A stretch of 64,000 nt of DNA, taken from Balanoglossus misakiensis. Lineage: Eukaryota > Animalia > Hemichordata. Location of the stretch: positions 9,940,461 through 10,004,460 of the forward strand of contig CM082596.2 of assembly GCA_040954595.2 (NCBI GenBank). Direction: 5' to 3'. Made by a program: the position numbers and the translations under genes. Within the stretch, counting starts at the first letter, position 1, and the number at the start of each line of letters is the position of its first letter. Below the pieces are notes generated by a model, which did no database searches, was not told the DNA's origin, and saw nothing but the letters and a program-made list of their open reading frames with translations. This document shows, in pieces, positions 6,001 through 36,625 of this stretch.

Positions 6001-9000
6001 CTAATAGTGCATCAGAGTAGATGGTGATGCAAGCTCTGCACTTTGACATAGGTATTTAATGCATATGCATGTGTATTTAATGTTGACTATAAATCCTCAG
6101 GTGAATACATGGCCATAAACACTATAATTTGACATTGCTAATGAAATGGTGACACTGAATCTGATTCTTTGCATCAGGGCATATTGTGAAGCATGCTTGA
6201 TGATGCATTAGGGTCAATAGTGATGGAAACACTGCACTATGACATGGGTATTTAATGCATACGCATTGATATTTACAGTTGACTCTAAATCCCGAGGTTT
6301 ATACATGGCTAAAAGCGCTGTAATTTAAAATTACTAATGCAAAGGTTACATTGAATATGGGTAAATGGTGAAGCAAGCTTGAAGATGCATCAGGGTAGCT
6401 GGTGTTTCAAGCCCTTCACATTGACATTGGAATATAATGCATATGGGGATTTAAAGTTGATTGTAAATCCCTAGGTTAATACATGGCCAAAAGCAATTTT
6501 ATTTGACATTGCTAATTGAACGATGACATTGAATCCGATTCTTTGCATCAGGGTAAATGGCGATGCAAGCTTGATGATGCATCACGGTAGATAGTGATGC
6601 AAACACTTTACTTTGACATGGGTATTAAATGCATATGGGGATTTCAATTTGATTACAAATCCCTGGGTTAATACGCGTCCAAAAGCACTGTAATTTGACA
6701 TTGCTAATGCGATGTTGACATTGAATGTAATTCTCCGCATTAGGGCAAATGGCAAAGCAAGCTTAATGATGCAATGGAGTAGACCGTGATGCAAGCTATG
6801 CATTTTGACATAGGTATTTAATGCATGTGCATGGGTATTAAATGTTGAATGTAAATTCTCAGGTTAATACATCTCCAAAAGCACTGTAATTTAAAATTGC
6901 TAATGTAAGGGTGACATTGAATCTGATTCTTTGCATTAGGGGAAATGGCGTAGCAAGCCTAATGATCCATCTGAGTAGATGGTGATGCAAGCTAAGCATT
7001 TTGACATAGGTACTAAATGTATATACATGGGTATTTAAAGTTGTCTGTAAATCCCCAGGTTAATACATGGCCATAAGCATTATAATTTGACATTGCTAAT
7101 GAAATGGTGACACTGAATCTGATTCTTTGCATCAGGGCATATTGTGAAGCATGCTTGATGATGTATTAGGGTCAATAGTGATGGAAACACTGCACTATGA
7201 CATGGGTATTTAATGCATACGCATTGATATTTACAGTTGACTCTAAATCCCGAGGTTAATACATGGCTAAAAGCGCTGTAATTTAAAATTACTAATGCAA
7301 AGGTTACATTGAATATGGGTAAATGGTGACGCAAGCTTGAAGATGCATCAGGGTAGCTGGTGTTTCAAGCCCTTCACATTGACATTGGAATATAATGCAT
7401 ATGGGGATTTAAAATTGATTGTAAATCCCTAGGTTAATACATGGCCAAAAGCACTGTAATTTAAAATTGCTAGTGCAATGGTGACATTGAATGTGATTCT
7501 TTGCATCAGGGCATATTGTGAAGCATGCTTGATGATGCATTAGGGTCAATAGTGATGGAAACACTGCACTATGACATGGGTATTTAATGCATACGCATTG
7601 ATATTTACAGTTGACTCTTAATCCCGAGGTTAATACATGGCTAAAAGCACTGTAATTTAAAATTACTAATGCAAAGGTTACATTGAATATGGGTAAATGG
7701 TGAAGCAAGCTTGAAGATGCATCAGGGTAGATGGTGTTTCAAGCCCTTCACATTGACATTGGAATATAATGCATATGGGGATTTAAAATTGATTGTAAAT
7801 CCCTAGGTTAATACGTGGCCAAAAGCAATTTTATTTGACATTGCTAATGCAACGATGACATTGAATCCGATTCTTTGTATCAGGGTAAATGGCGATGCAA
7901 GCTTGATGATGCATCACGGTAGATAGTGATGCAAACACTTCACTTTGACATGGGCATTAAATGCATATGGGGATTTCAAGTTGATTACAAATCCCTGGGT
8001 TAATACGCGTCCAAAAGCACTGTAATTTGACATTGCTAATGCGATGTTGACATTGAATGTAATTCTCCGCATTAGGGCAAATGGCAAAGCAAGCTTAATG
8101 ATGCAATGGAGTAGACGGTGATGCAAGCTATGCATTTTGACATAGGTATTTAATGCATGTGCATGGGTATTTAATGTTGAATGTAAATTCCCAGGTTAAT
8201 ACATCTCCAAAAGCACTGTAATTTAAAATTGCTAATGTAAGGGTGACATTGAATCTGATTCTTTGCATTATGGGAAATGGCGTAGCAAGCCTAATGATGC
8301 ATCTGAGTAGATGGTGATGCAAGCTAAGCATTTTGATATAGGTACTAAATGTATATACATGGGTATTTAAAGTTGTCTGTAAATCCCCAGGTTAATACTT
8401 GGCAAAAAGCAATTTTATTTGACATTGCTAATGAAATGGTGACACTGAATCTGATTCTTTGCATCAGGGTAAATGGCGATGCAAGCTTGATGATGCATCC
8501 CGGTAGATAGTGATGCAAACACTTCACTGTGACATGGGTATTAAATGCATATGGGGATTAAAAGTTGACTGAAAATCCCTGGGTTAATACAAGTCCAAAA
8601 GCACTGAAATTTGACATAGCTAATACAATGGTGACATTGAATGTGATTCTTTGCATTAGGGGAAATGGCGTAGCAAGCCTAATGATGCATCAGTGTAGAT
8701 GGTGATCCAAGCTATGCTTTTTGACATAGGTATTTAATGCATGTGCATGGGTATTTAATGTTGACTGTAAATCCCTGGGTTAATACAAATCCAAAAGCAC
8801 TGTAATTTGACATTGCTAATACAACGGTGTCATTTAATCTGATTCTTTGCATCAGGGCAAATTGCGAAGCAAGCTTAATGATGCATCGGAGTATATGGTG
8901 ATGCAAGCTATGCACTTTGACATACGTATTTAATGCATATGCATTGGTATTTAATGTTGACTGTAAATCCCCAGGTTAATACGTGGCCAAAAGCACTGTA

Positions 9001-12000
9001 ATTTGACATTGCTAATGCTACCGTGACACTAAATCTGATTCTTTGCATTAGAGTAAATTGTGAAGCAAGCTTGATGATGCATCAGGATAGATGGTGTTTT
9101 AAGCCCCTCACATTGACATTGGAATATAACGCATATGGGGATTTAAAGTTAATTGTAAATACCCAGGTTAATACATGGCCAAAAGCACTGTAATTTAAAA
9201 TTGCTAATGCAATGGTGACATTGAATGTGATTCTTTGCATTAGGGGAACTGGCGTAGCAATCCTAATAGTGCATCAGAGTAGATGGTGATGCAAGCTCTG
9301 CACTTTGACATAGGTATTTAATGCATATGCATGTGTATTTAATGTTGACTATAAATCCTCAGGTGAATACATGGCCATAAACACTATAATTTGACATTGC
9401 TAATGAAATGGTGACACTGAATCTGATTCTTTGCATCAGGGCATATTGTGAAGCATGCTTGATGATGCATTAGGGTCAATAGTGATGGAAACACTGCACT
9501 ATGACATGGGTATTTAATGCATACGCATTGATATTTACAGTTGACTCTAAATCCCGAGGTTTATACATGGCTAAAAGCGCTGTAATTTAAAATTACTAAT
9601 GCAAAGGTTACATTGAATATGGGTAAATGGTGAAGCAAGCTTGAAGATGCATCAGGGTAGCTGGTGTTTCAAGCCCTTCACATTGACATTGGAATATAAT
9701 GCATATGGGGATTTAAAATTGATTGTAAATCCCTAGGTTAATACATGGCCAAAAGCACTGTAATTTAAAATTGCTAATGCAATGGTGACATTGAATGTGA
9801 TTCTTTGCATCAGGGCATATTGTGAAGCATGCGTGATGATGCATTAGGGTCAATAGTGATGGAAACACTGCACTATGACATGGGTATTTAATGCATACGC
9901 ATTGATATTTACAGTTGACTCTTAATCCCGAGGTTAATACATGGCTAAAAGCACTGTAATTTAAAATTACTAATGCAAAGGTTACATTGAATATGGGTAA
10001 ATGGTGAAGCAAGCTTGAAGATGCATCAGGGTAGATGGTGTTTCAAGCCCTTCACATTGACATTGGAATATAATGCATATGGGGATTTAAAATTGATTGT
10101 AAATCCCTAGGTTAATACGTGGCCAAAAGCAATTTTATTTGACATTGCTAATGCAACGATGACATTGAATCCGATTCTTTGTATCAGGGTAAATGGCGAT
10201 GCAAGCTTGATGATGCATCACGGTAGATAGTGATGCAAACACTTCACTTTGACATGGGCATTAAATGCATATGGGGATTTCAAGTTGTTTACAAATCCCT
10301 GGGTTAATATGCATCCAAAAGTACTGTAATTTGACATTGCTAATGCGATGTTAACATTGAATGTAATTCTCCGCATTAGGGCAAATGGCAAAGCAAGCTT
10401 AATGATGCAATGGAGTAGACGGTGATGCAAGCTATGCATTTTGACATAGGTATTTAATGCATGTGCATGGGTATTTAATGTTGAATGTAAATTCCCAGGT
10501 TAATACATCTCCAAAAGCACTGTAATTTAAAATTGCTAATGTAAGGGTGACATTGAATCTGATTCTTTGCATTATGGGAAATGGCCTAACAAGCCTAATG
10601 ATCCATCTGAGTAGATGGTGATGCAAGCTAAGCATTTTGACATAGGTACTAAATGTATATACATGGGTATTTAAAGTTGTCTGTAAATCCCCAGGTTAAT
10701 ACATGGCCATAAGCTCTATAATTTGACATTGCTAATGAAATGGTGACACTGAATCCGATTCTTTGCATCAGGGCATATTGTGAAGCATGCTTGATGATGT
10801 ATTAGTGTCAACAGTGATGGAAACACTGCACTATGACATGGGTATTTAATGCATATGCATTGATATTTACAGTTGACTCTAAATCCCGAGGTTAATACAT
10901 GGCTAAAAGCGCTGTAATTTAAAATTACTAATGCAAAGGTTACATTAAATATGGGTAAATGGTGAAGCAAGCTTGAAGATGCATCAGGGTAGATGGTGTT
11001 TCAAGCCCTTCACATTGACTTGGAATATAATGCATATGGGGATTTAAAATTGATTGTAAATCCCTAGGTTAATACGTGGCCAAAAGCAATTTTATTTGAC
11101 ATTGCTAATGCAACGATGACATTGAATCCGATTCTTTGCATCAGGGTAAATGGCGATGCAAGCTTGATGATGCCTCATGGTAGATAGTGATGCAAACACT
11201 TCACTTTGACATGGGCATTAAATGCATATGGGGATTTCAAGTTGATTACAAATCCCTGGATTAATACGCGTCCAAAAGCACTGTAATTTGACATTGCTAA
11301 TGCGATGTTGACATTGAATGTAATTCTCCGCATTAGGGCAAATGGCAAAGCAAGCTTAATGATGCAATGGAGTAGACGGTGATGCAAGCTATGCATTTTG
11401 ACATAGGTATTTAATGCATGTGCTTGGGTATTTAATGTTGAATGTAAATTCCCAGGTTAATACATCTCCAAAAGCACTGTAATTTAAAATTGCTAATGTA
11501 AGGGTGACATTGAATCTGATTCTTTGCATTATGGGAAATGGCATAGCAAGCCTAATGATCCATCTGAGTAGATGGTGATGCAAGCTAAGCATTTTGATAT
11601 AGGTACTAAATGTATATACATGGGTATTTAATGTTGAATGTAAATTCCCAGGTTAATACATCTCCAAAAGCACTGTAATTTAAAATTGCTAATGTAAGGG
11701 TGACATTGAATCTGATTCTTTGCATTATGGGAAATGGCATAGCAAGCCTAATGATCCATCTGAGTAGATGGTGATGCAAGCTAAGCATTTTGATATAGGT
11801 ACTAAATGTATATACATGGGTATTTAAAGTTGTCTGTAAATCCCCAGGTTAATTCTTGGCAAAAAGCAATTTTATTTTACATTGCTAATGAAATGGTGAC
11901 ACTGAATCTGATTCTTTGCATCAGGGTAAATGGCGATGCAAGCTTGATGATGCATCCCGGTAGATAGTGATGCAAACACTTCACTTTGACATGGGTATTA

Positions 12001-12440
12001 AATGCATATGGGGATTAAAAGTTGACTGAAAATCCCTGGGTTAATACAAGTCCAAAAGCACTGAAATTTGACATAGCTAATACAATGGTGACATTGAATG
12101 TGATTCTTTGCATTAGGGGAAATGGCGTAGCAAGCCTAATGATGCATCAGTGTAGATGGTGATCCAAGCTCTGCGCTTTGGCATACGTATTTAATGCATG
12201 TGCATGGGTATTTAATGTTGAATGTAAATTCCCAGGTTAATATATGCATGGGTATTTAATGTTGACTGTAAATCCCTAGGTTAATACATGGCCATAAGTA
12301 CTGTAAGGGGTAGATGGTGATGCAAGCTCTGCACTTTGACATGGGGATTAAATGCATGCTGAGGGGGATTTTAAGTTGTCTGTAAATCCCCAGGTTGATA
12401 TGTGGCCAAAAGCACTGTAATTTGACATTGCTAATGATGG
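1..12440. repeat. Satellite DNA, ~196-bp monomer (variants ~192 and ~178 bp) in a 17-monomer 3262-bp higher-order repeat
   Basis: The GGTTAATAC anchor recurs at 143, 339, 535, 731, 908, 1104... Near-identical spurious ORFs recur at a 3262-bp period (885/4147/7409; 1390/4652/7914; 2188/5450/8712). The array runs off the left edge of the window. Confidence 0.97.
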
Positions 12441-16436: not shown

Positions 16437-16965
16437 CATGGGGATTAAATGCACATGCGTGTGTATTTAAAGTTAACTGTAAATCCCCAGGTTAATACGT
16501 GGCCAAAAGCACTGTAATTTGGCATTTCTAATGATGGTGAGATGTTGTTTGCTCCCCAGGGAGTTGAATGGAATATTTAGGTCCAACATCCTAGGTCAAA
16601 TGACCATGGGACAACTTAAAGCACGTTGAGATTTAATGTGCTACATAAGTTATAAATATTATAAAAATATTATTACATAAACAACACTCTTCCTTAGCAA
16701 AGGAAGTGGTCAGGTGAAATATATTCGCAGAGCTGACCAATTCTTTAAGGAAAATTAAAGTTGGGTAATTTGGATGTATTCATACGAGTGTTGGTCAATG
16801 ATAGGAAAGTCCTTTGTTCATTTTCAAAATGAAAACCAAAAATGCGAACAAAACACACTGAATTACGTATGGGATATTGATGTTGCCTAATTTGCGTGAC
16901 TCTACATTTACTTAAACTCTCACAGGGAGACAAATGTCACAGCAAACGGAAAAATGATTATGCTA
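16437..16965 (+). repeat. Duplicate of 12340-12860 (satellite part-monomer + SINE tail + flank)
   Basis: Direct colinear similarity to 12340-12860. Confidence 0.85.
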
Positions 16966-16967
16966 AG

Positions 16968-18935
16968 CAATACGCCAACCTTTAAAATATTACTTTAGAA
17001 AGTTTGTATTCATACTTTCTTCAAGTTGTCATAACGCTACCCCGAAATGTGTTTAAGTATTGCCTTTGTATTAATGGGCTAGATTCATGGCGTTATATGT
17101 CATAAATTAAAAAGCCAACCCTTATTGATTTTGATAATATTTATGTCGGAGAATCCACAATGAAAAATATGTATTTCAATTTCATAACTCAAAATGATTT
17201 TCAAATCCATGACCTTATTTTCAACTCCAGTGATCGTACATCCTGAACCTCGTGCCAGTAAATGATTGGCCATTACAGGGTTAATGGGCACTCTCCCGTT
17301 CTCTTCCTCCGCAGTTTCATTCATGTTCTTGTTTGACGGAAATGGGTGTGACCAGACGCTTGAATGTTTTCATGTGGGTGTCGTTGTTCATCGGGATCGG
17401 TCTCCTGGTGTGTCTGTACAGGTACGCAAGGAGAAACTGCCCACAAGAAGCTGCGAGTGAAACTATTTAAGGTAGTATGTGCCTCGCGGTCCGAGATTCA
17501 GACAAATGATAGTCCTCAAAACTTTTTCAAGTCTTTGATTTACTAAAGTGTATGGTGAGTCTCTTTGAAAACAACAAAAACATTACTCACCATATTGTTA
17601 TTTTTTTGAAAGTTTAAAATGAAGTTGACAATGTACCAAACAGATTCTATTTATTTCTTCATGACCATGTTCACCCCAAGGTCATATGGACCTGCAAGTA
17701 TATGCCAGAGCCAGAGTCGACATTACCGAAGCCAGAGTTCAAAGCTTGCAGGTCACCCCTTGCCAGCTCATGTCTAGCTAAACTGCCATGGATGCCAAGA
17801 GATATAGGACTACAGTAACCTGTAGATGGTTTCAGTATGTTTGAAGAAAGTGGTGGCGCACTTTTGGCTACATTTGAAATGGCTATGGTACCAGTGGTTG
17901 AATTTGCAAAGGTGACCTTTGACCTGGTATCATTAAAGATATTAAAGAACGATTGAACATTCCTTGTTGTCGTAAAATGACATCTGTAATAACTTATATT
18001 TTATCTGTTCATCTTGAAGTACTATATATTTAAACGCCAATTTTCCATTGCCAATCAATTTTTACAAATAAATTGTAATATGCATGTTGATTTTACAAAA
18101 ACTCCTTACTTCAAAGTGAATTCTGTTACACATCACGTAAATATTTTCCCCACGAATTCTTCAGTTGCTGACTCGGAAATTTCATATATTGGGCAGAAAT
18201 TGGATACATTACCGAGCCATTAAAATTACAGTTTTCTATTTTAATTGATCTTCCATAACTTCAAGTACTTTGATTTGACATAAATTAAAAACATCATGGT
18301 GAATAAATAAAAAATCTTTGATTATCTAATTGTGCATGTTTACATGGTTTTATTTTAGTATGCTGGGTACTTAATGTCTAATTGCTCGCTGATTTTATAC
18401 TGTTCAAGATGACAATCTAATTTTAGTTTTCAGCTGATAATGGAAATTACTGATTAAAAAAATTGAATTTTGTCATGAATAAACTTGTTGTTCATGGCAG
18501 TTGCTGTATTTTGTTTCATGTGTATTCAATTTTTGCAAGAATACCATTGAGCACAGTTTGATTTGATTAAACACGTTTATCGGAAAATTTTGTCATTTGA
18601 AATATCTGTTTTTGCGCCCTCTACCATTTGACCAAATGATTCTCTTATTTTGGTGGCCTTTGTCTGTGTATATGAGAATACTATAGTACTCTCGCATCGA
18701 TGATAGTAGAAGTTGAAAACGTCTCTTGCCACGTGGCCTAGAAGAAAGGTGATCTTTAGAGTAAAATAAAACAAACTATCCAGATAGGAAGCTAGAAAAG
18801 AAGTTGAATCGTTGAAATTTTATTTATTTTTATATTGTTAATATCGTTGGTGATGTTGACTGGCCGACAATCTTTGTCACACCAGTATTTGCAGGTAGAT
18901 TAAAACATTGCCTATTCCAGCAATAATCACAACAG
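16968..18935 (+). repeat. ~2-kb dispersed duplication, copy 1
   Basis: CAATACGCCAACCTTTAAAATATTAC...CCAGCAATAATCACAACAG is colinear with 33715-36625. Confidence 0.95.
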
Positions 18936-20784: not shown

Positions 20785-22557
20785 TTGGAAGGGACTGCTT
20801 TAAAAGATTATGTTAGAGAGGAACAAATTAGACAGAGGGATCTTAGGGCTACTGAGAGAGAGGAGCAGAGAGAAGATAATAGGCGGCGCGAGGAACATGA
20901 GAGAGAGATACTGAAAATGCAAATTCACTTACAAGAATTAAAATTGAAAGGGGAAAATACAGAACAGCAGGTTACTGAAAATAATTTGGCCAAAGCGCGT
21001 GCTCCGAGACTACAGGGTTTACGTGAGGATGTTGATGATATGGATGCGTACCTTCAACGTTTTCAGCGCTACGCCACTGCTCAGAAGTGGGAAAAAGATG
21101 ACTGGGGGTGAATCTCAGTGCATATTGTTACAAGGTAAGGATGTATCCACATACAACCAAATGCCTGCAGCGTCTGCAAATAATTATGATGAATTGAAAC
21201 CAGAGTTATTGAGGGCTTACCAGTTAAGTGAGGAGAGTTTTCATGACAAGTTCCGTTCGTGTATGCCACATTATGATGAAAGTGCTCAAAAGTTTATGGA
21301 CCGTATTGGTGACTATTTGGGCAGATGGGTAGAACTGGCTGGTACTCCAAAGACGTACAATGGGCTTACAGATCTGTTACTTCGAGAGCAGTTTATTGGA
21401 GTATGTTCCAGAGACATGGCAATGTTCATTAGAGAGCGACGGCCAGAGAATGTCCAAGAGATGGTATCTACTGCCTCAAAATACTTAGATGCCCGAGGGT
21501 GGTGGAAACTGCCAAGTAATGCCAAGAATAATCCAAGGAGCCAGCCGACAGCAAATACCAAGCCTGCTGTATATCCAAATCAAGTAAATAAGTTTAATAA
21601 CAAAACCAATGGTTCCCATGTTTTTAAAGGTACGTGCTTCGTATGTGGTAAAGGTGGTCATATGGCCAAAGATTGTAGAAGTAAGCCAAAGATGCATAAG
21701 ACGGCGGTATTGTTAACTGAAGAAGATAGAAACTATCCACCTAAACAAGAATGTACACATTGGGGCAACCGTCAACAGCCCAGGGGACTAGACACTGGTT
21801 ATGCATGTATGGTGGTAGCAATGGAAATAGATAAAACAGATGCAACACTGAATAAGGAGTTCGTGTTACCATGTGGTCATAAGCTCCCAGTGATGAGTGC
21901 TGCTTGTAGTGCCCATGGAGTGAAGAAGATGCCGGTAATGAAGGGATTGGTCGATGGTAAGCTGGTTAGCGTTTTGCGTGATAGTGGGTGTAGTAGCGTG
22001 GTAGTTCGAAGAAGTCTGGTGTCAAGTAATCAGCTGACTGGTGAGTACAGGACGTGTGTTCTGATAGATGGGACTATTAGAAGAGTACCTGTAGCCTCTA
22101 TAAAAGTTGATACCCCTTACTTTGTTGGTGATGTTACTGCACTGTGCATGATGAACCCTGTGTATGATTTAATACTGGGCAACATTGATGGTGTATCTGA
22201 CCCTTCGAATCCTGATACTACATGGCAGGAACCATTGCCGACATGTAGACTGTGTACAACTGTTGGACAGGTACCAGGTTTAGCAAATGCTGTGGAGACC
22301 AGAGCCCAGAAGATAGCCAACCAAAAACCAATCAGAGAGCTTAAAGTACCTAAAGCTGTTGGTGAAGTGGTGATGCCAGGGAAGCTTCAACAAGCTCAAG
22401 AAGAAGACTCCACTCTTGACAAACTACGTGAGAAGGCAATTTTGGGTGACGAGAAAGTGACTAGGAATGGAGGTAGGTTGAAGTTCATCATGAAAGATGG
22501 GATCCTGTACAGAGAGTTCAATTCGCCAATGGTCCAATTTGGTGAAAAGCTGTTACA
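20785..22557 (+). pseudogene. gag: gag-protease part of the Gypsy polyprotein (frameshift near 21110)
   Basis: Coiled-coil N-terminus and DMDAYLQRFQRYA in ORF 20785; LLLREQF, CFVCGKGGHMAKDC knuckle and LRDSGCS protease in ORF 20999. Confidence 0.9.
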
Positions 22558-22600
22558 CACTGCGGGAAATACTAGAGCTATGTTGGGCAGTATTCCGCGA
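22558..22600 (+). repeat. Left bipartite terminal inverted repeat
   Basis: CACTGC-N20-TGGGCAGTATTCCG. Confidence 0.8.
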
Positions 22601-22641
22601 AGCGCGAGCTCCCATGTTCACCATAGCAACGCATTGCCAAG

Positions 22642-23292
22642 ATGGCGGCGCCCGTGTTGATCGATGCCGAGAAAGTTATAAAACGCAAATTGCGAGAGGC
22701 AAAATCTGTGCTTAAACGTAAAAAATGCGTGTCGGACAATCTGTATATACACCCACTCTTTGATGAACTTGAGGATGTGACAACAAGGGCCATATTTCGA
22801 AACGACAAGCTGTCAAAGGACAAGATTCGTTGGCGTGACGTCGCCGTATTTCCCATGTTTCAGCGTGATATGACCTACTGGCAGAAGACCTTCTACGCTC
22901 GGCTGTCAACATCCCCGTCGTTAAGGTCACCATGGCAAAGCAGCTTTACACAACAAATGCCGAGGGAAGTATTTGATGTTTTTCATCAGTTTGCTACTCG
23001 GACCGGTTTTGGTATCGACGAGAAGACCTCCAGGGCTATCATAACCTTGACCTTCACAAGTTCCTCGAAGCTATTGTATGTGATACGGAAAGGTTATTGC
23101 TACGAGGGCGCTATCGGTCAGCATACAGAGAATATCCTAGAGAAGAAAGTCCGTGGAAAGAGGGTAGCTGTTATATGCACACCTGAGAAGCCCTGTGTTG
23201 TGAAATATTTTATCAACAGGGAGACTGTTGCTGTTAGATTCAGCTTTGGTGCCTGGAACAAACATGGAATTCCATTACATCCAGAGAACTGA
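22642..23292 (+). CDS. 216-aa basic protein of unknown function, transposon accessory gene
   Basis: Uninterrupted ORF with ATG in CAAGATGGCGGCG 84 bp inside the left end, AATAAA at ~23421 and a globular-looking composition. No domain recognised. Confidence 0.7.
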   Translation: MAAPVLIDAEKVIKRKLREAKSVLKRKKCVSDNLYIHPLFDELEDVTTRAIFRNDKLSKDKIRWRDVAVFPMFQRDMTYWQKTFYARLSTSPSLRSPWQSSFTQQMPREVFDVFHQFATRTGFGIDEKTSRAIITLTFTSSSKLLYVIRKGYCYEGAIGQHTENILEKKVRGKRVAVICTPEKPCVVKYFINRETVAVRFSFGAWNKHGIPLHPEN

Positions 23293-24144
23293 ACCCTATT
23301 GATTTTTCACACTGATTCAACCCATCTGACGAACATTTTTTTCCTGATCTGTGGCACATGTTGTTCAGTGTAGATGTATCAGTCTGTCAAGACAGTCCTC
23401 TCACAATTGACATATATTCAAATAAAAAAAGGAAAATTAGAAGACTCAAAAATTCATCACTTGTCTTTATTTATCTACATTCAATACAAATGAACAGATA
23501 ACGTTTACAAAATTTCCTAAACTGTAAAATTCTTTTTTTCCATCATTATTGTAACATAGATTTTTCATTAGTTTCAGAAAAAAATGTATGTTACCTACAA
23601 TCAACATTGATAAGTCAATCAAAACTGCTCATCTAACAGTTAACCAGGATTTCTGGTCTAAATTTAATTAATATTTACAATTAATTCCATGACAAAATTT
23701 ATAAATATCAAGAATTTGATGAGACTTAATTCTTTATTTTTTCACAAATTCATTAAAATTTCGTGCAGGTGCAGAATAAACAACTCCTCAAGAAAAATGT
23801 AAAACTTTTCTATCAAGCTTATGTATGTCATACATTTTAATTTTGCAAAGCACTGCAATCACTATACGATTAAGGGTTTATTCACAATACTTAATAGTGG
23901 TAAGATAAGTTTCAATTTCCCTGTCCCCATACATGCACACATATACAAAATCCCATAAGAAACATATCATCTCCAGTTCAAAAAGTGTGAATTCATGTGA
24001 TTTGTGATCTCCATTTTTATTAAATGCAGCTCTCAACTACAGATGAGTCTTTATAATTCTGTAATGTAATTAATACCATAGTTATCCTTTAATTCTAAAG
24101 TAGCACACAGTGACACAATCCACTGTTTCAAATTCAATCATTGT

Positions 24145-26385
24145 TCACAGCATAAGTTTCTTGAGTTTATTTGATATTTTACCAGTGACAGCTGCTTTTT
24201 TTATGTCATCCATAATTGGGTCAACACATATTTCACAGGCAGTCATTGTTTCATTTTTCAAATTGCCACACATACAGTAGCCTGCATTCTCATAATATCG
24301 ACTGGGAATGTATTTTTCTTTTTCTTTAAGCTCAAATTGACCTACATTTGCCCTTCTATAGTTGTCAGCTTTTGGACTTTTGTTCCTCAGCCAAAAAAGC
24401 ATCACATATTCGTGTCGAAATATGAGGGCCCACCTATTTTGAGGTGTAGAATTTTCACTGAATTCTAGCAGGCGTAGATGCTTTGCCTCTCTGCCTTCCA
24501 TTGTGTTTAGGCCTAATCCCAGACTGAATTGCTTATAGATACTAGTGGTGTGTTTTGGGACTACATAACCAATGTGCCACACAGTATTATTGACATTCAG
24601 AAACAGGGAATGTAGATTAAAGTACCACCGACACTTATGCCTAAGTACAAGCAAATCTCCCTCATTTATGTTGAATCGTGAGAATAACAAAGTGATATCT
24701 CTAAGCAAGATACCAGTATATGTGTAGAGAGCTAATTGAGCCCGACGCTTTGGACTGTCTGTATCGCTTCTCAATGCTAATACCAATCCCATGAAATGCC
24801 AAGCAAGTTTGCGAGACTCCTCACCAGTGAAGCGATAAACCACATTAATGTTGGCATTTGACTTGACACTATTTTCATTGAAGTATTTTACAATCTTATT
24901 ATACAACTTTCCAGCTTTTACTTGATATTTTAGGGCAGACAGGAATTTGTACAGATATGACTCGTTAGGTAGATTCTCAATTTTAACTCCATTTTCACGA
25001 CCCTTTTCCGAAGTGTGGGCAACTGCGTCAATCAGTAATCGTTGGAAGTAGTATTGCCATGCATTGTTCTTTAAATGCAATGGCTCAGCCTTGGCACAAT
25101 CAATAAATCTACCCAACGGTGGTACAAATTCCTGTCTTGACCTCAGACTGGCTATAAATTGTGTGATTTTGGGTCGCACTGTTTTGGGCTTTCCAGTTTT
25201 AATTTTCTTAGTTGACTTCAACTTTTCAACAGCTTCTGCATCTTTAATTCTTTTCTGATATTTCCATTCATCCCACTTCTGACCTGGGCCAATTTCTGCT
25301 CCAATACAATCAATATCATTTTTGGAAACGTTAGCAAATGAGCTGAAATACTTTGCTGCATTGCTTAGTTCTCCAGACACACTGGCCAATCCCTTCTGAT
25401 CAAAGGGTAAAAGTGACACCTGAAAAGTTACATCAAGACTGCCAACTTTATATTTACGTTTCTCAATACACTCAAGGTCTTTTGACAATGCAATTGCAAA
25501 TTCAATCATTATGGGGTCATCCTCTTTTATGTTTGCCCCTAATAGGAGAATATTGTGGTCTGGGCTAGCAACACGGTGGGTCACATTCAAGAAACTAACT
25601 AGCCATGCAGTGGCCTGTCCATGTTTGCCAAACGGAGCCCCGTCAGCACCTATACTGATTTGAAATGAGCCCTCCTGTTTACCGAACCAGTTAAGAATAT
25701 CAGGCTGTGTTTCCCCCATATTTAAATATAAACTGGCAATCTTAATAAGCAACTCCTCAGGGTTTCTTTTTAAGCCGACTTGTTTGCCTTCAGATGATAT
25801 AATTGGCTCAAGATTTCCAATGTCAAGGTTACTTACATACTGTACAACTTTTGTGTATGGGAGCAGTCTTGGTATTCTACAGCCAGAATGAATTTCTAAT
25901 GCTTTCCTAGGATGTTTCAAGTTGGAGAACATCTGAAGTTCACTCTGCCTCAGACAGTTATATTTTCGTTTGGATAGTACTCCGCCCTCATACATAGTTC
26001 TGACACTCCTCACCAAATTGTTCTCACTTTTCTCAAATTTACTGATGTATTTATCAAATACTGATGGCATTACTTTTTTACTGATTTGGGGAGAGGTTCT
26101 GAAGTATGTTTTCATTTGGTCAGGAGTGGCAGAATTAACAAGAGTATACCACAAACCATCAAGTGCTGCTTTTGGTGGATGTAGTACATTCGGTTTATTT
26201 ATACCTTTGGCTGGGCTTACATCTGTAGTTGCTACATGAATATTTATGGCTGCTGATAAGGTTTCACACCTACGTTCATACTGTTGACGTCGCGACAGCT
26301 TCAAAGATTCACTATTATCTGCACATACTTCAGTGTTCTTGTGGACCCATTTAGAGCGTTTCACATTAACATCATCAACAGGAAT
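24145..26385 (-). CDS. DDE transposase, RAG1-core/Transib/Chapaev-like; main (last) exon
   Basis: Motifs in RAG1 order: ISIGADGAPF (D), LLPFDQKGL (D), EPLHLKNN, RFTGEESRKL, GLGLNTMEGREAKH (E), then a C-terminal CMC-x9-CEIC. Splice acceptor TCTTTCAG at 26386, phase 0. Confidence 0.85.
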   Translation of the reverse strand: MPVDDVNVKRSKWVHKNTEVCADNSESLKLSRRQQYERRCETLSAAINIHVATTDVSPAKGINKPNVLHPPKAALDGLWYTLVNSATPDQMKTYFRTSPQISKKVMPSVFDKYISKFEKSENNLVRSVRTMYEGGVLSKRKYNCLRQSELQMFSNLKHPRKALEIHSGCRIPRLLPYTKVVQYVSNLDIGNLEPIISSEGKQVGLKRNPEELLIKIASLYLNMGETQPDILNWFGKQEGSFQISIGADGAPFGKHGQATAWLVSFLNVTHRVASPDHNILLLGANIKEDDPIMIEFAIALSKDLECIEKRKYKVGSLDVTFQVSLLPFDQKGLASVSGELSNAAKYFSSFANVSKNDIDCIGAEIGPGQKWDEWKYQKRIKDAEAVEKLKSTKKIKTGKPKTVRPKITQFIASLRSRQEFVPPLGRFIDCAKAEPLHLKNNAWQYYFQRLLIDAVAHTSEKGRENGVKIENLPNESYLYKFLSALKYQVKAGKLYNKIVKYFNENSVKSNANINVVYRFTGEESRKLAWHFMGLVLALRSDTDSPKRRAQLALYTYTGILLRDITLLFSRFNINEGDLLVLRHKCRWYFNLHSLFLNVNNTVWHIGYVVPKHTTSIYKQFSLGLGLNTMEGREAKHLRLLEFSENSTPQNRWALIFRHEYVMLFWLRNKSPKADNYRRANVGQFELKEKEKYIPSRYYENAGYCMCGNLKNETMTACEICVDPIMDDIKKAAVTGKISNKLKKLML

Positions 26386-26738
26386 CTGAAAGATTAAGTG
26401 TGTGATAAATATATACTAATTAGAATATAATCATTATATATAAAATAAAATCTTCTTACAAGTTAATCATTAATTTAAATGTCCTTGATAAGAAATACAC
26501 ACGTGTAGCCTGTATTTTTCTGACAACTTCTGCAATAAAAATCCTAAAAAATATATATAGTTTGTTGGAAAACCTAGATGTTTTGCATCAAAGCTGAACC
26601 CATTTTGTTATCATTGTTTACACAGGATCATGTGACATGAAGTTCAAAAAGCGAATTTGGGCTAAAATTTGAAGAGGATTTATACAAATCTGAGATTTTT
26701 AAAATTATGACTAAGTCTATTTATCTGATCTAGCTTAC

Positions 26739-27182
26739 CTTTCTCTTATTATTCTTTGTAGCTAAGATCTCACAAATCTTACTGTTCTTCTTCTCTAGTC
26801 TAGCTAGCTGGGTTGAGGATCTTTTTACTAGTCTCCTAGCTGCACTCAACTTATTCAACTTATCCTGAATTATGCTTTCTTCCTCATCTCTCTTTCTCTT
26901 TCTCTGTCTACACCACTCTCCTAAGTTAAACCTGTGTTTAGTCTGTCCTCTCTTTGTTCTAACTACCAATAGGTTGTTGGCCACGCTCCCAGACAAAGAT
27001 CTAGTCTTCAATTTCTCCTGATATAGTTGTTGCAAACACTTCTCTTCAGCTACCTGTCTCGCTATCTTTTGGTCCTTTGTCCACTGGCCTATGTTGAAGT
27101 AACTTTTCCCTTTTCTATTCGGCATAACAATAGACAAACTTTTAAGAAGTGCGCTACTCCTGTTGAATAGTTTGCCCCACAT
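26739..27182 (-). CDS. Upstream coding exon of the transposase (148 aa, K/R-rich, helical)
   Basis: ATG at 27182 in GCCATG; donor AAG|GTAAGC at 26738 joins in phase 0 to IPVDDVNVKR, giving ~894 aa in total. A further acceptor (CCCTTTTCAG, 27199) and donor (ATG|GTAAGG, 27334) suggest a 5'UTR intron. Confidence 0.7.
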
Positions 27183-27987
27183 GGCTCTAAATCTATACCT
27201 GAAAAGGGTGAACAAGAGAAATATCTTTACAATAATTATCTATCCGAGGGAAGCAAAAACAAAACACCTGCTCATTATACTTCCTCCAGAAATTGAGGTC
27301 AAAGGTGACATAGAAAGAATGTGGGTAACCTTACCATAACAATCTCGCCCGTTCATTTTTTTCTTATTTCGTTTTCACCCTCGAATTTCCAGCGAATTAT
27401 ATCAAGAATATATTTTAGCACAAACTATTGGTTTCTGATTTTTCAGTTACGGTCTTATTTTCTGTCAATTCTATGAACAATATCACCATGTCGCTGAAAA
27501 TTCGAAGCGCCGCCATTACAATCAATGTAACCCGTGCTGCTGCCAAGGAACACACAGGGTCGTATATTTTCGCTTGGTATGATTTCGTCATATTGCTTGT
27601 AGCAGCATTTTAAACATGGAATCCTATGTTTACGTATAAAAGACTAAATTCGTATGGTTTTCAAATTGAAAAAAACAATTCTGTGAAGCTGAATCGTTGT
27701 AATTTTTAGTGTTTGTTTATGGTTGCTTAGGACGGCTTCTGCTATAGCAACGGCCAGGGACTGTCAGCGGGTGATCAAAATGTTCAAGTTATTTGGCTGA
27801 TACACATAAATAACACAGCAGAATCGCAACTTTATTTCATATTGTCTCTGACATCTTGCTAATTTTACTAAACAAAACTTGGAATAAAGCAATATTACTC
27901 ACCGAATTATGCTGTGCATCGACAGCTGTGTTCGATCGCGAACGCCATTACTGTGTCTAATTAAATATTCATGAGCTTCATAGGCTG

Positions 27988-28031
27988 CCACGGAAATACT
28001 GCCCATAGGTGGCGTCGTTCAAGCTGTAGTG
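27988..28031 (-). repeat. Right bipartite terminal inverted repeat
   Basis: The reverse complement reads CACTAC-N20-TGGGCAGTATTTCCG. Confidence 0.8.
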
Positions 28032-28034
28032 ACA

Positions 28035-29995
28035 GGTGGTGGTTCCCAGAGTGTATCGTAACCAGGTGATGAGACTAGCCCATGAATCAGTGCTGGGTGG
28101 TCACCACGGAACTCACAAGACCACAGACAAGATCCTCAGCAACTTCGTTTGGCCTGGGCTAACATCAGATGTTTCCCGTTACTGTCAGTCCTGTGATTCA
28201 TGTCAACGGACACAACCAAAGGGACGGGTGACCAAGGTACCACTTGGAAGTATGCCACTAATAGATATCCCTTTCCTACGTATTGCAGTAGACCTGGTTG
28301 GCCCTATTCATCCATGCACTGAACGCAAGAATAGGTACATACTTACTGTTGTTGATTATGCAACACGCTATCCGGAGGCTGTTGCATTGACTAACATTGA
28401 TACCAAGACTGTTGCAGAGGCGCTCCTGGACATCTACTCAAGAGTGGGGTGTCCACGTGAAATTCTGACAGATCAAGGAACTCAATTTACATCAGATGTG
28501 ATGCGTGAGGTCAGCCGGCTTTTGTCTATAAAGCAGAAGACTACCACCCCATACCACCCAGCATTCAATGGTCTAGTGGAACGGTTCAATGGTACATTGA
28601 AACTCATGCTCAGGAAGATGTGTGAGGAACGTCCAACATATTGCGATCGTTATCTGAATGCTTTACTATTTGCCTACAGAGAAACGCCTCAATCGAGCAC
28701 AGGATTCTCTCCGTTTGAGTTACTTTATGGGAGGAGTGTGCGTGGTCCAATGGCTATCTTGAAAGAACTATGGACTGGAGAGATCAGTGAACCAGAAACC
28801 AAAACGACTTATCAATACATCCTTGATCTTCAAAAGAAATTAAAGAAGGCATGCGATTTAGCAAGACAAGAACTGAAGATATCACAAGGCAAATACAAGT
28901 CCTACTACAATAGAAAGGCCAAATGGAGGAAGTTCAACAAAGGTGACGAGGTGTTATTGCTACTACCTACTGACCATAATAAACTACTTATGCACTGGAA
29001 GGGTCCTTTTCCAGTGGTGGAGAAAGCGAGCAATATGGATTACAAGATTGACTTTGGTCATAGGGTGAAAACATTCCATGCCAACCTGTTGAAGAGGTAC
29101 TATCGAAGAACTGATCAGCTAGATGAAGTATCAGCTGGACTTCTTGAGATTGTGTGTGTATCTGTGATAGATGAGCAGAGTTATGAATCTTCAGAAGTAC
29201 AAGAGAACACAGGGGTTAAAGTAAACGATGACTTACTGCGGGTTCCTGCATTCAAGCAGAAAGAATTTGCTGCAGATGTGAATGTATGTGACAACTTGTC
29301 AGACATACAGGAGCAAGTGGTGAGGAGGTTGCTGATCAATTACAAAGATATGTTAACTGATATTCGTGGTAACACCAACCTGGGTTTCCATGACATCAAG
29401 TTGATGGATCCAACACCAGTATGCAGTAGGCCATACCCCATCCCTCATGCACTCCGTGAAGCAGTGAAAGATGAAGTCAAAACGATGATTAAGATGGGAG
29501 TAGCTGAACCTTCAGAGAGTCCATATGCTGTTCCACTGGTAATGGTGAAGAAATCTGATGGGTCCAATCGTTGTTGTGTTGACATGAGAAAGCTCAATCG
29601 CATAACAGTGTTTGATGCAGAGCCTACACCAGACCTGAGTGATCTCAGCAAAGAATATTGGCAAGTCCCGTTGACTGATAATTCTAAACAATTGACGGCA
29701 TTTATCACGCATGATGGGCTATACCAATTTATCAAAATGCCTTTCGGACTTGTAAATAGTGCTGCGACTTTTAGCAGAATTATGAGAAGATTGTTAAGAG
29801 ATATGAAGAACGTAGACAACTATATCGATCACATACTGATCCACACTGCATCATGGGAAGAACATATCAAGACAATTACAGATTTGATGAGCAGACTACG
29901 AAAGGCAAAGTTAACAGCGAGACCAACTAAGTGTTATGTGGGTTATGAGCAGATCGATTTCCTGGGTCATGTGGTTGGTCATGGTGAACTATTCC
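28035..29995 (+). pseudogene. pol: Integrase + defective, truncated reverse transcriptase of the Gypsy element
   Basis: AHES..GHHG..CDSC zinc finger, AVDLVGP, ILTDQGTQF, GLVERFNGTLK and WKGPF, then RT motifs PYAVPLVMVKK, MPFGL, YIDH (for YIDD) and FLGHVVG. There is an internal deletion before DLSKEYWQ. The ORF tail to 30201 is unrelated sequence. Confidence 0.92.
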
Positions 29996-30094
29996 TGTTT
30001 CAAAATGACCTACATTACAGGTCCTATGCACACGTATTACATGTTCTGATTGGTTTATCCACTTCTCTAAGGTCCACTTGCGGCTCGCTGATTG

Positions 30095-30355
30095 GAGGGA
30101 CCTTATGTGTTAGGTCTTATTACTATGTATTATTCACCAGACCTTGTAGGTTAGGTCTTATTACAATGCATTATTCACTTTACAGCTCCCTGATTGGTTA
30201 ATGTGTAGGTCTGGTCCTCCAGTGTTCACTGCCTCATTATGCAGGACCTTGTAGGTTAGGTCTTATTAATATGTATTTATTCACCATACAGCTCCCTGAA
30301 TGGTTAACGTGTCAGTCTGGTCCCCCCCCCCCAGTGTTCACTGCCTCATTGTGAA
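30095..30355. repeat. Short local tandem duplication (~106-bp unit)
   Basis: ACCTTGTAGGTTAGGTCTTATTA at ~30141 and ~30247; CCAGTGTTCACTGCCTCATT occurs twice. Confidence 0.6.
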
Positions 30356-33600: not shown

Positions 33601-33714
33601 AGCGTTAACATAACTTTATCAGAATAAGTTAACGCCATAACTTTGACAGAATAAGAGTTGCCTCAAACGGCTCTAACCGAATTTCCATTAATAGCAGAAC
33701 AAACAAGCTGTAAT

Positions 33715-36625
33715 CAATACGCCAACCTTTAAAATATTACTTTAGAAAGTTTGTATTCATACTTTCTTCAAGTTGTCATAACGCTAACCCGAAATGTGTT
33801 TTAGTATTGCCTTTGTATTAATGGGCTAGATTCATGGCGTTATATGTCATAAATTAAAAAGACAACCCTTATTGTTTTTGATAATATTTATGTCGGAGAA
33901 TCCACAATGAAAAATATGTATTTTCAATTTCATAACTCAAAATAATTTCCAAATCCATGACCTTATTTTCAACTCCAGTGATCGTACATCCTGAACCTTG
34001 TTCCAGTAAATGATTGGTCATTACAGGGTTAATGGGCACTCTCCCGTTCTCTTCCTCCGCAGTTTCATTCATGTTCTTGTTTGACGGAAATGGGTGTGAC
34101 CAGACGCTTGAATGTTTTCATGTGGGTTGAGTTGTTCATCGGGAACGGCCTCCTGGTGTGTCTGTACAGGTACGCAAGGAGAAACTGCCCACAAGAAGCT
34201 GCGAGTGAAACTATTTAAGGTAGTATGTGCCTCGCGGTCCGAGATTCAGACAAATGATAGTCCTCAAAACTTTTTCAAGTAATTGATTTACTAAAGTGTG
34301 TGGTGAGTCTCTTTGAAAACAACAACAATATTACTCATCATATTGTAATTTTTTGAAACTATAAAATGAAGTTGACAATGCACCAAACAGATTCTATTTA
34401 TTTCTTCATGACCATGTTCACCCCAAGGTCATATGGACCTGCAAGTATATGCCAGAGCCAGAGACGACATTACCGAAGCCAGAGTTTAAAGCTTACAGGT
34501 CACCCCTTGCCAGCTCATGACTAGCTAAACTGCCATGGATGCCAAGAGATATATGACTACGGTAACCTGTAGATGGTTTCAGTATGTTTGAAGAAAGTGG
34601 TGGCGCACTTTTGGCTACATTTGAAATGGCTATGGTACCAGTGGTTGAATTTGCAAAGGTGACCTTTGACCTGGCATCTTTAAAGATATTAAAGAACGAT
34701 TTACCATTCCTTGTTGTCGTAAAATGACATCTGTAATAACTTATATTTTATCTGTTCATCTTGAAGTACTATATATTTAAACGCCAATTTTCCATTGCCA
34801 ATCAAGTTTTTACAAATAAATTGTAATATGCATGTTGATTTTACAAAAACTCCTTACTTCCAAGTGAATTCTGTTACACATCACGTAACTATTTTCCCCA
34901 CGAATTCTTCAGTTGCTAACTCGGAAATTTCATATATTGGGCAGAAATTGGATACCGTATATTCTCACAAATAAGCGCCACCCATGATTAGGCGCCAGTG
35001 ATACCTGACTTTGCTACTTTTTACTTAAAATTAAGCGCCAGGAATTTTTTTTGAGGTGTGTGGACGTACGTGAATCATGACAAGTGCTACCGAGGTAACA
35101 CCTGTTTAGGGGTCTCGTCAAAAACAACGGGGGGCTTGCTGTGTGAATAATAATTGACCTGAGCAGACAATGCATGCTTTGGGCTGATGTGCTATTTATT
35201 TACAAGATGAAATCGGGCACGTGTCAACCTCCTAATTTATGTAAATTATCACACTGCAAAAGACACAGGTGCCGGGCGTCTAGACACTCGTCTTTTTCCT
35301 GTCGATCGATCGGCAGCCGCTTACGTTACCGGCACTACCACCCAAGTTTGACCATATGGCCAGGGCTTTGAAATAATAGGACTAGTTTCAAGTTGTGAAT
35401 ATGTTTGCGGTATTAATTTTCTCGTGAATATTCACGCAACGTGAGTACATGTATTCACGCAACCTTGCCTGACCTTACATGTATGAGAGCATGATGACAA
35501 AGACGCACTTGGACTAAACCACTATACGTCAGTAGATTTTGTTGATGGTTCAGCCAGCATACTGTAATGCTGCTCGTAGTATTCACTTCGTTGACAACTT
35601 TTTATTTCTGGAATATTTATTAGATAATACATTGAACTGACTGTATTTGAATAGAAAATGTTAAAACTTTACATATGAATTTGAAACAGCCATTCATTCA
35701 CTACGGACACTCCCTTATGAGAACACTGATTGGAACGTCCCAAATCATTTGCATATGAATCAACAGGGTACAGTATACCGGGCTATCCATGAATAAGCGC
35801 CACCGGTTCTTGAAAAGACTCATTTCTGCCTTTGTTTAGGCGCCACCAAAATTTGAAATGGTTAAAAAGTGGCGCTTATTTGTGAGAATATACGGTACAT
35901 TACCCAGCCATTAAAATTACAGTTTTCTATTTTAATTGATCGTCCATAACTTCAAGTACTTTGACTTGACATACATTAAAAACATCATGGTGAATAAATA
36001 AAAATTATTTGATTATCTAATTGTGCATGTTTACATGGTTTTATTTTAGTATGCTGGGTACTTAATGTCTAATGGCTCGCTGATTTTATACTGTTCAAGA
36101 TGACAATCTAATTTTAGTTTTCAGCTGATAATTGAAATCAATGATTCAAAAAAATTGAATTTTGACATGAATAAACTTCTTGTTCATGGCAGTTGCTGTG
36201 TTTTGTTTCATTTGTATTCAATTTTTGCAAGCATACCATTGAGCACAGTTTGATTTGATTAAACACGTTTATCGGAAAATTTTGTCATTTGAAATATCTG
36301 TTTTTGCGCCCTCTACCATTTGACCAAATGATTCTCTTATTTTGGTGGCCTTTGTCTGTGTATATGAGAATACTATAGTACTCTCGCATCGATCATAGTA
36401 GAAGTTGAAAACGTCTCTTGCCACGTGGCCTGGAAGAAAGGCGATCTTTAGAGTAAAAAAAACAAACTATCCAGATAGGAAGCTAGAAAAGAAGTTGAAT
36501 CGTTGAAATTTTATTTATTTTATATTGTTAATATCGTTCGTGATGTTGACTGGCCGACAATCTTTGTCACACGAGTCTTTTCAGGCAGATTAAAACATTG
36601 CCTATTCCAGCAATAATCACAACAG
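33715..36625 (+). repeat. ~2-kb dispersed duplication, copy 2 (with a 941-bp MITE insertion)
   Basis: Colinear with 16968-18935 apart from the insertion. Confidence 0.95.
34955..35895. mobile_element. Non-autonomous Tc1/mariner-pogo element, perfect 27-bp TIRs, TA TSD
   Basis: TA|CCGTATATTCTCACAAATAAGCGCCAC...GTGGCGCTTATTTGTGAGAATATACGG|TA. The empty site GGATACATT is present in the paralog at ~18202. Confidence 0.92.

Follow-up and report, generated by a model that had tools for sequence, protein, structure and literature searches.

A DNA transposon of 5,474 bp (22558..28031, no strand assigned) was identified in a 64,000-nucleotide stretch of DNA from the hemichordate Balanoglossus misakiensis (GenBank assembly GCA_040954595.2, contig CM082596.2, positions 9,940,461 to 10,004,460), which is referred to here as the window and to which all coordinates refer. 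The element lies between two Gypsy-type retroelement reading frames and carries a transposase gene on the minus strand and a small partner gene on the plus strand. Our analysis points, with a probability of about 0.72, to a two-gene transposon in which a predicted RAG1/Transib-fold transposase, free of the core zinc ligands family-wide, cuts and pastes the element, likely with its small, convergent, non-kelch partner. This reading is built on the observed element ends, a 3-bp target site duplication, an intact DDE triad, the absence of the C2H2 ligands across the family, and the linkage and co-divergence of the partner with the transposase.

Transposase gene, family and fold

The transposase is encoded by exon 2 (24145..26385, minus strand; 746 amino acids with a RAG1/Transib core fold) and by a predicted exon 1 (26739..27182, minus strand; 148 codons, basic, ATG at 27182), similar to short basic upstream frames in relatives. 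Judging from the sequence, the two would be spliced in phase 0 (GT end, AG at 26385) to give a putative protein of 894 amino acids. Residue numbers count from the first codon of exon 2; 148 is added for the predicted full protein.

Homologue searches gave 354 proteins at E<=0.001 among 7,997 candidates, the best 120 of which were used for residue counts. A wider search found 3,155 representatives (50% clustering) at E<=0.001, from which the best 150 were taken. The named homologues belong to Ptychodera (74% identical), corals, anemones, Lineus and Branchiostoma and are without exception annotated as 'uncharacterized' or 'hypothetical' proteins; the hosts of the relatives are mainly cnidarian, with hemichordate, lancelet and nemertean hosts as well. 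A search of viral contigs gave 35 pattern matches, of which none was confirmed.

The initial annotation had proposed a RAG1-core-like transposase from motifs aligned by eye; it had overlooked the ends of the transposon, the target site duplication and the second conserved gene. All RAG1 motifs that it quoted were found, in the same order, in the minus-strand frame 24145-26415, and its catalytic codons were correct: D248 (25642..25644, minus strand; RAG1 D600 equivalent), D329 (25399..25401, minus strand; RAG1 D708 equivalent, followed by the invariant K331) and E633 (24487..24489, minus strand; RAG1 E962 equivalent). The triad is intact, as claimed, its residues being kept in 119, 120 and 120 of the 120 homologues, respectively. 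The active-site histidine H437 of the EPLH motif (25075..25077, minus strand; RAG1 H795 equivalent) is present in 119 of them.

The proposed relationship to RAG1 was upheld at the level of the fold. An AlphaFold2 model built from a 121-sequence alignment reached a predicted local distance difference test score (pLDDT) of 90.2 and a predicted template modelling score of 0.85. At E<=0.001 Foldseek gave 49 matches, which carry the names RAG1, BbRAG1L and HzTransib, with mouse RAG1 as the best (E 1.8e-12). VIA-align placed 465 residues on mouse RAG1 (Z 22.8, root mean square deviation (rmsd) 3.9 A, 10% identity), followed by HzTransib (6pqx, rmsd 4.0) and BbRAG1L (6b40), both at Z 20.1, the P element transposase (6p5a, Z 11.2) and Hermes (Z 5.6). 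Among Atlas neighbours, cnidarian hypothetical clusters came first and RAG1 clusters next. HMMER searches of the PDB with the transposase protein and two family profiles found no RAG1 or Transib at E<=10, a Pfam scan of the transposase and four homologues matched no transposase family, and the best 120 homologues carry no Pfam domain. RING and Chapa domains were not detected.

Zinc site of the transposase core

In RAG1 the zinc ligands are C727, C730, H937 and H942, according to PMC4914335. The RAG1/RAG1L alignment in supplement 7 of PMC7204232 has D-x-K, G at +9, Y/F at +17 and C at +19 and +22 from D708. The counterparts in the present family are D329-x-K331, G338 (+9) and Y346 (+17), and the stretch D329-A351 is free of gaps in all 120 homologues; with the published register, the equivalents of C727 and C730 are therefore S348 and A351. 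This position, S348-S-F-A351 (25333..25344, minus strand), is occupied by serine in 113 and cysteine in 4 of the 120 homologues at the first residue and by alanine in 107 and glycine in 11 at the second. The F-x-x-F assigned to the CxxC by the initial annotation is one residue off, and F347 and F350 align with RAG1's own hydrophobic flankers I726 and L729.

At the histidine site the Transib rows in the same supplement read T-P-T-L-H-K-I-L-A-H and P-A-T-V-H-K-V-L-I-H. The family consensus, T/N-P-T-V-W-T-I-G-H/Y-V/A-V-P, puts W603 and V/A/I608 in register with these T-P-T-L-H and P-A-T-V-H anchors, so that W603-x4-V608 (24562..24579, minus strand) stands as the H937-x4-H942 position, as first read. 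Tryptophan occurs at 603 in 119 of 120 homologues and V, A, I, L or C at 608. The occurrence of cysteine at 348 in 4 and at 608 in 7 of the 120 agrees with the chosen register. The view that the zinc site had been swapped for a hydrophobic cluster of F-S-x-F and W holds in part: one histidine became a near-invariant tryptophan and the other a small aliphatic residue, and the cysteines became the small residues S and A/G.

The loss of the C2H2 site, first seen in this copy, was found to be family-wide when homologues were aligned. Among the 172 of 264 homologues that cover all four ligand sites, 153 kept none, 17 kept one, 2 kept two and none kept three or four; a CxxC near the site was present in 0 of 228. 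The ligand-free state extends to 29 representatives below 60% identity and to the most divergent clade (P0210, P0222, P0224 and P0250; 21-25% identity, Branchiostoma among the hosts). Proteins of this clade have a C-terminal extension; P0222 and P0224 have SAP matches, and P0222 also has a C2H2 finger. As far as the aligned sequences tell, the four core zinc ligands are absent throughout the family, and we infer from them that the site is truly metal-free.

A separate cysteine cluster lies near the C-terminus (C704, C706, C717 and C720; 24226..24276, minus strand), its residues being kept in 114-116 of 120 homologues. It is likely a zinc knuckle. The cluster had been described as CxC-x9-CxxC; its spacing is C-x-C-x10-C-x2-C. 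As in the earlier comparison, its position is that of the Cys-rich tail of RAG1L; its motif differs from the RAG1L CTT* motif, Cx2Cx3GHx4C (PMC7204232).

Element ends and target site duplication

The element begins with CACTGCGG and ends with CTGTAGTG, giving CAC..GTG termini, and ACA stands on both sides as a 3-bp target site duplication read from the sequence (22555..22557 and 28032..28034, both plus strand). The terminal inverted repeats lie beside the partner gene (22558..22597, plus strand) and upstream of the transposase (27992..28031, minus strand). Both are bipartite, with CACT.C.G, a poorly matching spacer and, at positions 27-37 of each end, an exact 11-bp box, TGGGCAGTATT, which is identical and equally offset in the two repeats. 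In the whole window the terminal box was found only at 22584 (plus strand) and 28005 (minus strand) when 12 nt were searched with <=1 mismatch.

Related loci were taken from metagenome contigs (the best 80 of 272). Matching CAC..GTG ends occur in relatives. Only eight end pairs, those beginning with CACGC at both ends, were counted, as automatic end-finding gave chance pairs in many loci. An exact 3-bp duplication was present in three of the eight, a 2-bp match in one, no duplication in four and a 5-bp duplication in none. The flanks of the relatives' copies recur in mixed combinations across loci and are therefore unreliable; this pattern suggests assembly mixing, without proving it.

The end regions of the transposon (22558-23292 and 27183-28031) are CpG-rich, with an observed/expected ratio of about 1.0 vs 0.2-0.4 in the interior, and AAAATGGCGG occurs near both ends in relatives. 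Together, the CpG-rich ends and AAAATGGCGG suggest inward-facing promoters.

Partner gene

The partner gene (22642..23292, plus strand) encodes an alpha/beta protein of 216 amino acids and lies tail-to-tail with the transposase gene, its start being 84 bp inside the far end of the transposon. Its family carries Pfam PF26709: a profile search found 16 homologues, all with PF26709, and a single-sequence search found none. There are no other long reading frames inside the transposon.

Analysis of the 80 related loci by tblastn with the partner alone revealed a match in 35 (E<=0.01), always downstream of and convergent with the transposase. A partner profile, itself built from these loci, found the gene in 35 of the 37 loci with at least 1.4 kb of downstream sequence. 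After grouping of near-identical copies, it was present in 17 of 19 element families. Partner differences showed a third-codon-position excess in 5 of 5 pairs. Partner and transposase distances are correlated (rho 0.73, p 0.0002, 18 elements) and their clades match.

The partner model (pLDDT 77, 23 sequences) shows helices and a small mixed sheet, with no propeller. Fold searches gave no clear match: the best Foldseek E was 0.016, the best template modelling score in a viral library was 0.24, and VIA reached Z 7.1 on the N-terminal helices only, with Z <5 for the alpha/beta part. This lack of a clear match does not show a new fold. A complex prediction of transposase and partner, run without alignments, scored 0.00 and was counted neither way.

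A third gene at the other end was considered and rejected as a regular feature, as only partial partner-like pieces occur upstream, in 4 of the 80 loci. Several relatives have, on the upstream side of the transposase, either partial inverted copies of the partner-gene end or another inner terminus: L018 (at about 590), L030 (285-470), L016 (1168-1263) and L008 (at about 1513). This is the look that would be expected had the partner gene formerly been part of long terminal repeats.

Proposed mechanism

A transposase dimer would bind the CAC end and the 11-bp internal box at both ends of the element. Cleavage would be carried out by D248, D329 and E633 together with H437, as in RAG1 and Transib, and, to judge from the fold, probably with a hairpin on the flank. 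Insertion with a 3-bp stagger is expected from the observed duplication, its chemistry being predicted from the fold.

Within the core, the ZnB insertion domain would hold together with no metal: the indole of W603 would occupy the room of the first histidine and the zinc, and S348, A/G351 and V/A608 would be small residues in place of the other ligands. We consider it quite probable that the ZnB domain is packed around W603 instead of zinc. The C-terminal four-cysteine knuckle would then be the only clear zinc site remaining.

The likeliest single role for the partner, at about even chances, is that of an accessory transpososome subunit, similar to RAG2 in function and unrelated to it in fold. 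It may dock on the long ZnC2-equivalent helices (about residues 370-420). At 108 residues, the D329-H437 span of the transposase is longer than that of RAG1 (87) and much longer than that of HzTransib, and this length indicates that the RAG2-binding region of RAG1, described in PMC9435367, has a counterpart in the transposase.

Several findings weigh against the two-gene, zinc-free reading. Loci L007 and L028 lack the partner despite sufficient flank. Any passenger carried by a single element would show linkage and co-divergence, and a physical role does not follow from them. Five of the eight end pairs in relatives are without a 3-bp duplication. H612, H636 and H658 are conserved, and an H-x3/4-H lies nearby in 86 of 193 homologues, mostly as H607/H612, which leaves room for a register shift or for another metal site; the zinc-site mapping is derived from motif register. 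In addition, this copy is probably drifting neutrally, to judge from the sequence differences between alleles. Both junctions are spanned by contigs from two public runs of a single sample, which differ from the window by 23 bases and two 1-bp indels; of 12 changed codons, 10 are nonsynonymous. Both indels lie in T runs inside exon 2 and could be explained by homopolymer errors; it is the transposase frame of the window that aligns with homologues along its whole length.

Alternative explanations and comparison with known transposons

The strongest alternative, to which we give somewhat less than an even chance, is that the transposase works alone and the partner is a long-held passenger that aids the element otherwise, for example by nucleic acid binding or by countering silencing. 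Transib transposase needs no partner. The partner is basic and diverges faster than the transposase (mean identity 25% vs 42%). An Atlas comparison with Argonaute N/L1 gave a weak resemblance, below the reliable level (score 0.93, 142-151/256 shared, recognition 1431), and no Argonaute N-domain appeared among the partner's fold matches. The fixed tail-to-tail arrangement, seen in 17 of 19 families, would suit whatever function is required, that of a subunit included.

A slightly less probable alternative, still credible at roughly one chance in three, is that the element belongs to an already catalogued repeat family (e.g. an EnSpm, Chapaev3 or Transib of Repbase), with its zinc loss and second gene left undiscussed. 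Coral and anemone genomes contain the family in abundance, the wider search gave 3,155 representatives, and the partner already has a Pfam accession. CAC..GTG ends with a 3-bp duplication fit EnSpm (PMC12730594) and some Transibs. Against this, all named homologues are annotated as uncharacterized or hypothetical, the best 120 have no Pfam domain, and the 2025 survey of the CMCT clade describes C(2)C and H(3-4)H as common to all CMCT lineages (PMC12730594). A search of paper supplements for the family motifs gave 0 matches, and the literature searched, with Repbase, subscription journals, figure alignments and bioRxiv supplements outside reach, described neither a RAG1-fold lineage without the zinc nor the partner.

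Comparison with ProtoRAG/RAGL elements revealed the same RAG1 core fold, DDE triad with H795 equivalent, CAC ends, two convergent genes, long ZnC2-equivalent region and Cys-rich C-terminal tail, in overlapping hosts (Ptychodera, Branchiostoma, nemerteans and cnidarians). The present element differs in lacking the C2H2 ligands, in its identity of about 10% with no sequence-level match, in a tail of the form CxCG..CxxC vs Cx2Cx3GHx4C, in a 216-amino-acid alpha/beta partner vs a six-bladed kelch RAG2L, and in a 3-bp vs a 5-bp duplication. The kelch partner and 5-bp duplications of RAGL elements are described in PMC7204232, PMC4411706 and PMC1131882. The transposase is not a RAG1L, as it has no kelch partner, a 3-bp instead of a 5-bp duplication and no sequence-level match.

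The Transib superfamily (HzTransib; subgroups I and II) shares the fold, the motif order and CAC termini with a second internal conserved box; it has CxxC, H-x4-H and one gene, whereas the family studied here has neither motif and has two genes, and its profile gave no hidden Markov model (HMM) match to HzTransib or RAG1 at E<=10. Since some Transibs make 3-bp duplications (bioRxiv 2026.08.26.747230), such a duplication alone is not distinctive. The CMCT clade (EnSpm/CACTA, Mirage, Chapaev/Chapaev3, Plavaka, ESTA and Lanisha) resembles the element in its CA..TG termini, 2-5-bp duplication and RAG1-like catalytic domain. In the present family the C(2)C and H(3-4)H between the second D and E are absent at their positions. 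Plant EnSpm also encodes a second protein. The P element transposase, the next match in fold and far weaker than RAG1 and Transib, has an RNase H domain with a helical insertion, is not known to have a C2H2 zinc site, makes an 8-bp duplication and carries THAP and GTP-binding domains, which were not seen in the transposase studied here. Overall, the transposon is a variant of the CMCT/Transib-type transposons, lacking the core zinc ligands and with a second gene. That it represents an unnamed sister lineage of RAG/Transib at superfamily rank, widespread in marine invertebrates, with a zinc-free core in an obligate complex with a non-kelch partner, and with it a second, independent RAG1-plus-helper invention, is an extension that we regard as rather unlikely.

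Improbable, by comparison, is a displaced core metal site, in which H612 (24550..24552, minus strand) with H/Y607 or other conserved residues would bind metal one helical turn off the lost site. H612 is conserved in 116 of 120 and 67 of 77 homologues, H607-x4-H612 is present in 63 of 120, and the distance from H612 to E633, 21 residues, is within the RAG1/RAG1L range of 20-24. However, 57 of 120 sequences, this copy among them, carry Y, V, K, N or F at position 607, the CxxC is missing from all 228 homologues, and W603/V608 is the pairing supported by the T-P-T-V-W and x-V-P anchors. Decay confined to this copy, from a zinc-binding RAG1L or Transib, with which the apparent neutral drift of the locus between alleles would agree, is refuted by the family-wide S/A/W/V state, common to 264 homologues at 21-74% identity, and retains a negligible probability.

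The C2H2 site counts as a defining feature of RAG1, Transib and every CMCT transposase, and here a large natural family keeps the fold and the triad without it. The zinc-less family constitutes a direct test of the role of zinc in the mobile ZnB domain. The fixed, tail-to-tail, non-RAG2 partner suggests that RAG1-fold transposases acquired a helper on more than one occasion, a point relevant to the question of why RAG2 was gained and retained. Because the family is invisible to Pfam and RAG1 HMM searches, surveys of RAG origins have probably overlooked it. Intact autonomous copies are possible tools to test.

Insertion site and surroundings

A Pfam scan of the flanking Gypsy-type frames identified SCAN, zf-CCHC and protease domains on one side of the transposon and integrase and reverse transcriptase on the other. 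A Gypsy-type retroelement (20948-22557 and 28033-30201) is split by the transposon, with a SCAN-like gag and with the integrase ahead of the reverse transcriptase, which appears truncated. At 22556 one contig of run X2 departs from the window sequence and shows 8 different bases immediately beyond the end of the element, which hints weakly at a further insertion site.

The Gypsy region is flanked by two copies of a 2-kb block at 96.5% identity (16964-18207 / 33711-34955 and 18205-18935 / 35896-36625). The second copy is broken by about 940 bp and the ends are not TG..CA, so the blocks are not clearly long terminal repeats. Large satellite arrays occupy 1-12242 and 37600-64000 of the window, with a unit of about 196 bp (64 copies), a unit of about 77 bp in both orientations and a 239-bp unit.

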